A stretch of DNA of 62,450 nucleotides, the filler included, from Sluysia triapertura (Eukaryota), in assembly GCA_046118255.1 (NCBI GenBank). It is 4 parts of 4 records of this genome, joined end to end, with 100 filler letters (N's around TTAATTAATTAA, not from the genome) between each part and the next. Parts side by side here need not be neighbours in the genome. Positions count along the whole stretch, not along the records: positions 1 to 13,621 come from JBJNIA010029055.1; 3 more parts are not named here. The stretch is one strand, 5' to 3'. A program made the translations under genes and the position numbers. Under the pieces are notes generated by a model that worked only from the letters and a program-made list of their open reading frames with translations, searched no databases and was not told the origin of the DNA. Below are positions 680 through 1,450 of the stretch, in pieces; the first letter of the stretch is position 1, and every line of letters starts with the position of its first letter.

Positions 680-1450
680 AAGTAGAAGATCTTTGTAGAG
701 AGATTATTATTAATGATTGTAAATTATATCGTGAAATACTGCGTACAGAAATGGCTAATCCGAGTATGGCTACTCTGTTAGGTAAAGGTGTTTTAGTAGA
801 AGAATAATTAGTAAATTATTACCAACATTCACATGCAAAGAGGTTGATGTTTATATTAATCGCATTAATGAATGTACTCATGATTTGCCAGTTATTTATA
901 AAAACAGTTACTTACATGGAACCGGTTACAAGATTATTACTGTCTGATATATTAAAGGTATCAAAAATTAAATTTTCACCTTTATTTTCTCCAGCATACA
1001 AATTATCAGAAGCATCAAGTGTCATGGCTCTATCATTGATACCAATACCGCACCGAGAAACCTAGAAATTACAAATTTACATTAAAATATACATTTTGAT
1101 CGTATTCAAGATTTAATGAAGTGTAGTTTATATGATAAAAACCATGAAGGATGCTAGAAAATATTTACTGTAGAAACTTCTACAGGAAAGATAGGTTAGA
1201 CACCAAATTATGTAAGGTTATTGTCAGCAAATCATTTTTAAAGAGCAACAAAAGGATATGGGGAAAATTTTTAATTCTTGGTCAAGGAATGGCTGGTTTT
1301 ATGGAATTGTATTATATAATTATTACAATAAAATTACTTTTCAGCAAGTGATATCCACTTATAAATTACATAAAATTATTGGTTTCATCTGGAAATTCGT
1401 ATTATTTCTTAGGTTTCTACTTTCAAATGGTTTACATGAAAAACTTTCGA
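680..1450 (+). pseudogene. C-terminal half of a chuvirus-like/retroelement envelope glycoprotein, frameshifted
   Basis: Manual translation across frameshifts: LCREIIINDCKLYREILRTEMA...TFTCKEVDVYINRINECTHDLPVIYKN/TYMEPVTRLLL...SPLFSPAYKL...DLMKCSLYDK...IWGKFLILGQGMAGFMELYYIIITIKLLF/QVISTYKLHKIIGF. The block order matches the chuvirus-type G pattern as I recall it (C-x-x-V-x-V...EC..xLPV.Y..YMxPxTR; WxxFxxxGxxxAG TM; YxLH). Confidence 0.75.

Follow-up and report, generated by a model that had tools for sequence, protein, structure and literature searches.

The sequence at nt 661–1530 of the window (the whole 62,450-nt stretch of DNA analysed here) is very probably a neutrally decaying env fragment of a Ty3/gypsy (Metaviridae) element with the GAG-ENV-POL order, of the Burro-like kind. 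The fragment descends from the env of a gypsy polyprotein; it is env by descent, without coding capacity today. An HMM scan of the window matched no gag, protease or pol near nt 661–1736. Nucleotides 300–2000 have no repeat partner within the window, and the nearest copy of the window's repeat lies at least about 3 kb away; no LTR, primer-binding site or target-site duplication was found to flank the fragment. Because neither gag, protease nor pol stands beside nt 661–1736, the feature is filed as a fragment derived from an element and not as an element. The features are listed in Table 1.

Table 1. Element-derived features and host genes of the window
Feature	Position (nt)	Strand	Evidence
Decayed env, C-terminal half	661–1530	+	Alignment to P0011 residues 705–1001; PF24664
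Possible env-to-protease linker remnant (weak)	1531–1736	+	Alignment to P0011 residue 1087, the protease start
Decayed env, N-terminal hydrophobic segment and ectodomain start	41120–41833	-	19 homologues, 17/19 with PF24664
Possible Bcl-2-like domain tail (weak), just upstream of env	41791–41886	-	Score 45 against P0006
Ubiquitin-like domain of gag-env spacer	43685–43853	-	Score 74 against L002; family HMM E 1e-4
Third env piece, C-terminal region with TM	45950–46522	-	PF24664 E 0.0015; env HMM E 9e-12
Decayed gag with CCHC zinc knuckle	47222–48107	-	gag HMM E 2e-11; zf-CCHC E 0.0015
Second gag copy	60241–60729	-	gag HMM E 3e-30; blastn; tblastn
LTR-like repeat of ~1.4 kb, dispersed, starting sharply with TG, 3' end undefined	44200–45647	-	
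Second near-full LTR-like repeat copy, upstream of gag	49600–50872	-	74% identical to 44–45 kb copy
LTR-like repeat, loci 1–4	4620–6960; 16783–17125; 31764–33104; 35196–35652		
LTR-like repeat, loci 5–8	44200–45647; 49600–50872; 58200–58740; 62083–62220		
Host gene, small GTPase	18480–18620		
Host gene, Unkempt-like CCCH zinc finger	20323–20967		
Host gene, exosome RNase PH subunit	36462–37018		
Host gene, C2HC finger	53332–53538		
Host gene, FtsH/YME1-like (M41) protease	57761–59452		

The env fragment

The original prediction placed the C-terminal half of a chuvirus-like fusion glycoprotein at nt 680–1450. The six motifs that it quoted all lie on the plus strand in the order given, at 715, 834, 870, 910, 1259 and 1360, and in shifting frames as it described: 715, 910 and 1360 are in frame 0, 834 and 870 in frame 2, and 1259 in frame 1. 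The span is homologous but slightly narrow: homology starts at nt 655/661 and ends at about nt 1530, with alignments to other relatives reaching about nt 1512–1545. Upstream of nt 661 no homology was detected, 51 of 100 shuffles scoring as high.

The frameshift-aware reconstruction that had been suggested succeeded. Aligned with X placed at the breaks, the fragment scores 632 against the relative P0011; the shuffle maximum is 43 (none of 20 reaches the score) and the opposite strand gives 33. The firm core, nt 661–1464 on P0011 residues 705–1001, has 155 identical residues of 268, with 3 stops and 7 frameshifts. The wider alignment, nt 661–1736 on residues 705–1087, has 174 of 344 identical, with 6 stops and 8 frameshifts. 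Its last part, the possible linker remnant, reaches 32 when scored alone, a value attained by 9 of 200 shuffles, and the opposite strand gives 33.

PF24664, the Pfam Monjiviricetes fusion glycoprotein family, matches colinearly in two frames, at about nt 831–908 (profile 382–407, E 0.015) and about nt 1229–1430 (profile 531–594, E 1.8e-5, 23.3 bits), both matches being under the curated cut-off of 27 bits. An HMM built from 13 env relatives matches the fragment with E 1.7e-18 (reversed control 0.45), and in tBLASTn eight long relatives match it with E 9e-7 to 6e-32. It keeps 32 of the 49 family-invariant columns and three of the four invariant cysteines, and is aligned over the hydrophobic (TM) segment of P0011, whose start is at residues 931–937. 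A word-seeded protein search with the frame at nt 676–1062 found no relative among 161 candidates, and a viral_contigs search gave no match.

Right after the env fragment there are broken cadherin-like repeats at nt 1690–2110 on the plus strand (Pfam E 0.086), presumably protocadherin-like by their motifs, and a RING finger is found downstream at nt 2400–2510 on the same strand (E 1.2e-5). Both pieces look like pseudogene debris.

Relatives and retroelement origin

Among the relatives P0011 stands out, with 59% identity to the fragment (54% with another guide), versus 21–39% for 17 others. In the env tree (LG+G4, 14 full-length relatives and two window pieces, leaving out short fragments and P0020, a near-duplicate of P0005) the fragment and P0011 form a sister pair (UFBoot 99). 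P0011 is a single ORF of 2627 aa in which protease, RT, RNase H and integrase come after env. Its entry, HBK71150.1, is annotated as a protein of a Flavobacteriaceae MAG; the sequence is a complete gypsy polyprotein of eukaryote type and likely comes from a contaminant contig. Protein searches with P0011 returned 7 proteins in one case and 3 in the other, and apart from P0011 itself no protein was closer than 40%. A metagenome scan yielded at least three confirmed relatives among the 593 pattern matches listed.

An exhaustive search with the N-terminal env piece at 41 kb returned 19 proteins; 17 contain PF24664, and in six there is also a protease, RT or CCHC domain of retroelement type. The domains of the relatives include RT_RNaseH, Integrase_H2C2 and Ty3_capsid, and among solved structures Ty3 Gag-Pol is the closest to the pol part (E 4.4e-34). 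The raw contig L003 has one 2693-aa ORF comprising Ty3 capsid, CCHC, env, PR, RT, RH and IN, and the raw contig L001 has env and pol within one ORF. Since these raw contigs carry env in the polyprotein ORF, the joining of env to pol is not a gene-model fusion. Neither L001 nor L003 yielded an LTR pair. Downstream of pol, L001 has an accessory ORF (10617–12107) in which an exonuclease domain of the RNase T-like kind is recognised (E 1.4e-5). In P0003, P0020, P0023 and L001, env is followed by two to four domains resembling aspartyl proteases.

Of the two origins offered by the original prediction, an endogenised virus and an enveloped retroelement family, the latter is borne out, as the env relatives sit inside Ty3/gypsy polyproteins. 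BEL/Pao elements have other marker domains than gypsy-type pol. A comparison with arthropod BEL/Pao elements (Anakin) is not supported: the relatives are of gypsy type, and their env stands in frame, with gag before it and pol after it.

Fold of an intact relative

The assignment to the chuvirus-G/gB-like class III family stands, supported by the PF24664 matches and by the fold of P0001, a relative at 37% identity; the model stands for this relative and not for the fragment itself. The AlphaFold2 model of P0001 was made from an alignment of 19 rows and is of moderate confidence, with mean pLDDT 63 and pTM 0.40. It matches both kinds of protein that the original prediction had proposed for comparison. 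In the PDB the matches are to herpesvirus gB, the best being HSV-1 gB (E 4.8e-9). The best BFVD match is the G of Tacheng tick virus 4, a chuvirus (E 2.1e-32, 20% identity), and the top ten are chuvirus and related glycoproteins with 16–20% identity. The TM-scores of these fold matches are low, 0.2–0.4. The env ectodomain is thus predicted from the model to have a class III, gB-like fold.

With the helix and strand layout taken from the P0001 model, the fragment takes in the last part of the long central helix, the beta-rich crown, the extended arm, the membrane-proximal region, the TM segment and the start of the tail; these names we take to be those of gB nomenclature. The N-terminal half, which has the fusion loops, is missing from the fragment, so that its ectodomain is not intact.

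The spacer between gag and env

Between gag and env, the relatives have a helical domain and a ubiquitin-like domain, and some also a Bcl-2-like domain. The helical plus ubiquitin-like profile is found in 9 of 31 proteins and the Bcl-2-like profile likewise in 9 of 31, seeds included. Upstream of env, a ubiquitin match is seen in L002 (E 1.3e-4) and Bcl-2 matches in P0016 (7.7e-5) and P0001 (0.00096). The Bcl-2-like profile matches Bcl-xL in the PDB with E 0.002, and the Atlas offered nothing usable for this region (best 0.81). Folded as a single sequence, the L002 spacer has pLDDT 39.9.

In the window the ubiquitin-like domain lies at 43.7 kb and the weak Bcl-2-like piece at 41.8 kb; neither adjoins the fragment at 661–1530. 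The score of 74 for the former is reached by none of 30 and none of 20 shuffles, and the best reversed control of its HMM is 0.81. Profile A5, which includes this piece, has ISG15 and other ubiquitin-like proteins as its best PDB chains (E 0.005). The score of 45 for the Bcl-2-like piece is reached by none of 30 shuffles (maximum 40), and its family HMM gives E 3.8; over the window the Bcl-2-like family HMM finds nothing significant. Weak candidate matches to the helical spacer occur upstream, at 45.7–45.8 and 46.4–46.5 kb.

The spacer was also considered as a new feature. This was rejected, as the accessible part of PMC6431247 already describes both domains for Burro; the corresponding part of PMC13524379 does not mention a ubiquitin-like/Bcl-2-like spacer.

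Other element pieces in the window

Across the window the env HMM finds three loci with E below 0.05, the next match being at 0.068. The env piece at 41 kb scores 225 (shuffle maximum 38). It is 30–31% identical to P0011 and 19–34% to other relatives; its position in the tree, apart from P0011, is weakly supported. The third env piece, at 46 kb, went unnoticed in the original prediction, as did the gag and ubiquitin-like remnants; it shares 32 of 108 residues with the 661–1530 fragment and forms a separate tree branch. Judged by sequence, the pieces at 41 and 46 kb belong to lineages other than that of the 661–1530 fragment, and the window holds at least two env lineages of the Burro-like kind.

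On the minus strand, reading from 50.9 kb, the order is LTR-like repeat, gag-CCHC, env C-terminal piece, LTR-like repeat and ubiquitin-like domain, continued down to 40.5 kb by the possible Bcl-2-like tail, the env N-terminal piece and a non-LTR retrotransposon remnant. Between 41 and 51 kb, then, elements of the kind that the env fragment comes from form a cluster that is nested or rearranged. The two gag copies share 71% nucleotide identity. The LTR-like repeat occupies eight loci of the window, one of them split, with copies mostly 67–80% identical, and a sharp TG start is common to four copies (45647, 50872, 6949 and 62219). These dispersed copies of about 1.4 kb are probably solo LTRs.

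Two decayed copies of a non-LTR retrotransposon C-terminus are located at 40480–41130 and 34563–35070, both on the minus strand, with 67% nucleotide identity. They contain a CCHC finger (Pfam zf-RVT E 0.24) as well as the motif of a restriction-like endonuclease, and we take them to be R2/NeSL-like. One of them abuts the env piece at 41 kb and probably truncates it. The minus strand also has a short, weak gypsy reverse transcriptase-like remnant at 19574–19663 (HMM E 0.08) and a DDE_3 transposase fragment at 33400–33558 (E 3.3e-6).

Alternative explanations

A solitary env copy without retroelement flanks could also be a direct viral insertion, in which cDNA of a glycoprotein mRNA from a chuvirus or another member of the Monjiviricetes integrated alone. 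The best viral fold matches are indeed chuvirus and chu-like glycoproteins, and such EVEs are common in arthropods, with nematode and crustacean cases according to the available part of PMC10084718. Against this, the fragment is 54–59% identical to the env of a gypsy polyprotein, whereas identity between the folded relative and its ten best viral matches is only 16–20%; of the 19 first homologues none has a virus name (10 were looked up, and the two clusters with names are both 'hypothetical'); and the frames scanned in the first 4.7 kb contain no viral N or L domain. Judged through the relatives rather than by aligning a chuvirus G to the fragment, the Jingchuvirales G proteins are not its nearest relatives. 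A direct insertion is therefore very improbable, and together with it the endogenised chuvirus of the original prediction is largely refuted already.

The original prediction further held that a separate N-terminal half lies 40 kb away. An env piece is really there; it is not the other half of the same gene. One env split by an inversion of about 40 kb, with the N-terminal half at 41 kb on the minus strand and the C-terminal half at 0.7 kb on the plus strand, would suit the geometry, and the pieces do not overlap on P0011 (377–601 versus 705 to about 1010). Yet the identity of the C-terminal half to P0011 exceeds that to the other relatives by about 20 points, and the N-terminal half shows no such excess (30–31% versus 19–34%). 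Pairs of homologues that are 65–79% identical in the C region keep 54–80% in the N region. The trees place the two halves differently, about 100 residues are absent between the pieces, and the N-terminal half has its own spacer remnants upstream. With 30–31% identity to P0011 and another place in the tree, the 41 kb piece is thus not the other half of the 661–1530 fragment, and a split env is highly unlikely. Retention of the fragment by the host, as a template for small RNAs (piRNA) or as an antiviral decoy, is scarcely more probable. This role was proposed for solo glycoproteins of mosquitoes in the part of PMC7642597 at hand, and the region is rich in element debris; but there is no sign of conservation, and the env frame is destroyed, which makes a protein decoy impossible. 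The preferred reading remains a neutrally decaying env fragment of a Burro-like gypsy element.

Comparison with known elements

The portion of PMC6431247 consulted describes the Burro polyproteins of planarians as gag-CCHC, Ubi/SUMO-like, BCL-2, env and PR-RT-RH-IN, with an env that matches mononegavirus fusion proteins and is called the first example of an env placed in frame with gag and pol on either side. Compared by this description, the relatives of the fragment agree with Burro/GYPSM1 in the in-frame env between gag and pol and in the Ubi/SUMO-like and BCL-2-like domains upstream. The Burro/GYPSM1 elements are giant gypsy elements, whereas the window holds broken pieces only; decayed Burro fragments were reported in Dugesia japonica in the same portion. 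The MATH, BIR and ankyrin domains of Burro were not seen in Pfam scans of the relatives, and the nearest relative, P0011, is smaller (2627 aa) and lacks a Bcl-2-like match.

Errantiviruses with gB-type env and the GAG-ENV-POL order were reported in Nematoda, Bryozoa and Platyhelminthes by Chary and Hayashi (PMC13524379, as far as its accessible part goes). The set 'Platyhelminthes C1a' shares with the relatives the Ty3/gypsy pol, the gB-type env and this order. By eye, the family motifs of the relatives are present in the Schmidtea rows of that source, and P0008 is near-identical to the Smed_errantivirus_1 row of the C1a set; the nematode rows viewed look far more distant from the relatives than the Schmidtea rows do. 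The elements of that set are intact and often multicopy, with 1 to 215 copies in Schmidtea, whereas the present fragment is a dead orphan.

The G-derived EVEs of Chuviridae/Jingchuvirales (PMC10084718) and the Anakin BEL/Pao elements (PMC7642597), as described in the available parts of these papers, have PF24664 and the gB-like fold in common with the relatives. Identity to Chuviridae G is only 16–20% at the family level, from the fold matches of P0001. Compared with Anakin, the pol domains of the relatives are gypsy-type and not BEL/Pao-type, and env comes before pol. Troyka elements, in the accessible part of PMC12440569, were set aside as irrelevant to the env fragment.

Proposed history

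In intact relatives one long polyprotein has the order gag-CCHC, helical domain, ubiquitin-like domain, sometimes Bcl-2-like domain, env and protease-RT-RNase H-integrase, and the env ectodomain is placed between two hydrophobic segments. Given the fold, the intact env presumably fuses the membranes of particles or cells, by which the element may move between cells. A Burro-like element would have inserted long ago at the 0.7 kb locus. Deletion or rearrangement may then have removed gag, the N-terminal half of env, pol and the LTRs. Decay of the reading frame is seen directly, and point mutations and indels would have broken it in the course of this history.

Host context and significance

The window has 24.6% GC and contains ordinary eukaryotic genes (Table 1), which can be used for the phylogenetic placement of the host. 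An intact single-exon gene for a 547-aa membrane protein is present at 7663–9306 on the plus strand; it has no Pfam match, and the Atlas points to otopetrin (0.91, recognition below threshold). Two ORFs of 111 and 139 aa at 22645–23518 on the plus strand have no convincing Pfam match and probably belong to one gene as its exons. Runs of 44 N, in pairs and next to (TAA)n microsatellites, occur at 13622–13721, 34174–34273 and 51363–51462, the first being stated join filler.

We infer a flatworm-like host. It is possible, though rather doubtful, that the host, an AT-rich, gene-dense animal with divergent-looking proteins, is not a triclad flatworm. Burro-type elements would then have entered a lineage from which they are so far undescribed, and 62 kb of it would hold two or three env lineages of deep divergence, one of them the P0011 clade, hostless so far.

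This kind of element is already known and is best studied in flatworms, and the dead env fragment is a further, fairly ordinary member. It extends the fossil record of gypsy elements with a gB-type envelope, and the P0011 clade, until now hostless, gains an animal genome. It also calls for caution, as the 'chuvirus-like glycoprotein' of a genome is in many cases the env of a retroelement and no evidence that a chuvirus once infected the host. Should the host fall outside the planarians, the range of Burro-type elements would be wider, which would bear on the timing of the gain of a class III fusogen by gypsy elements.
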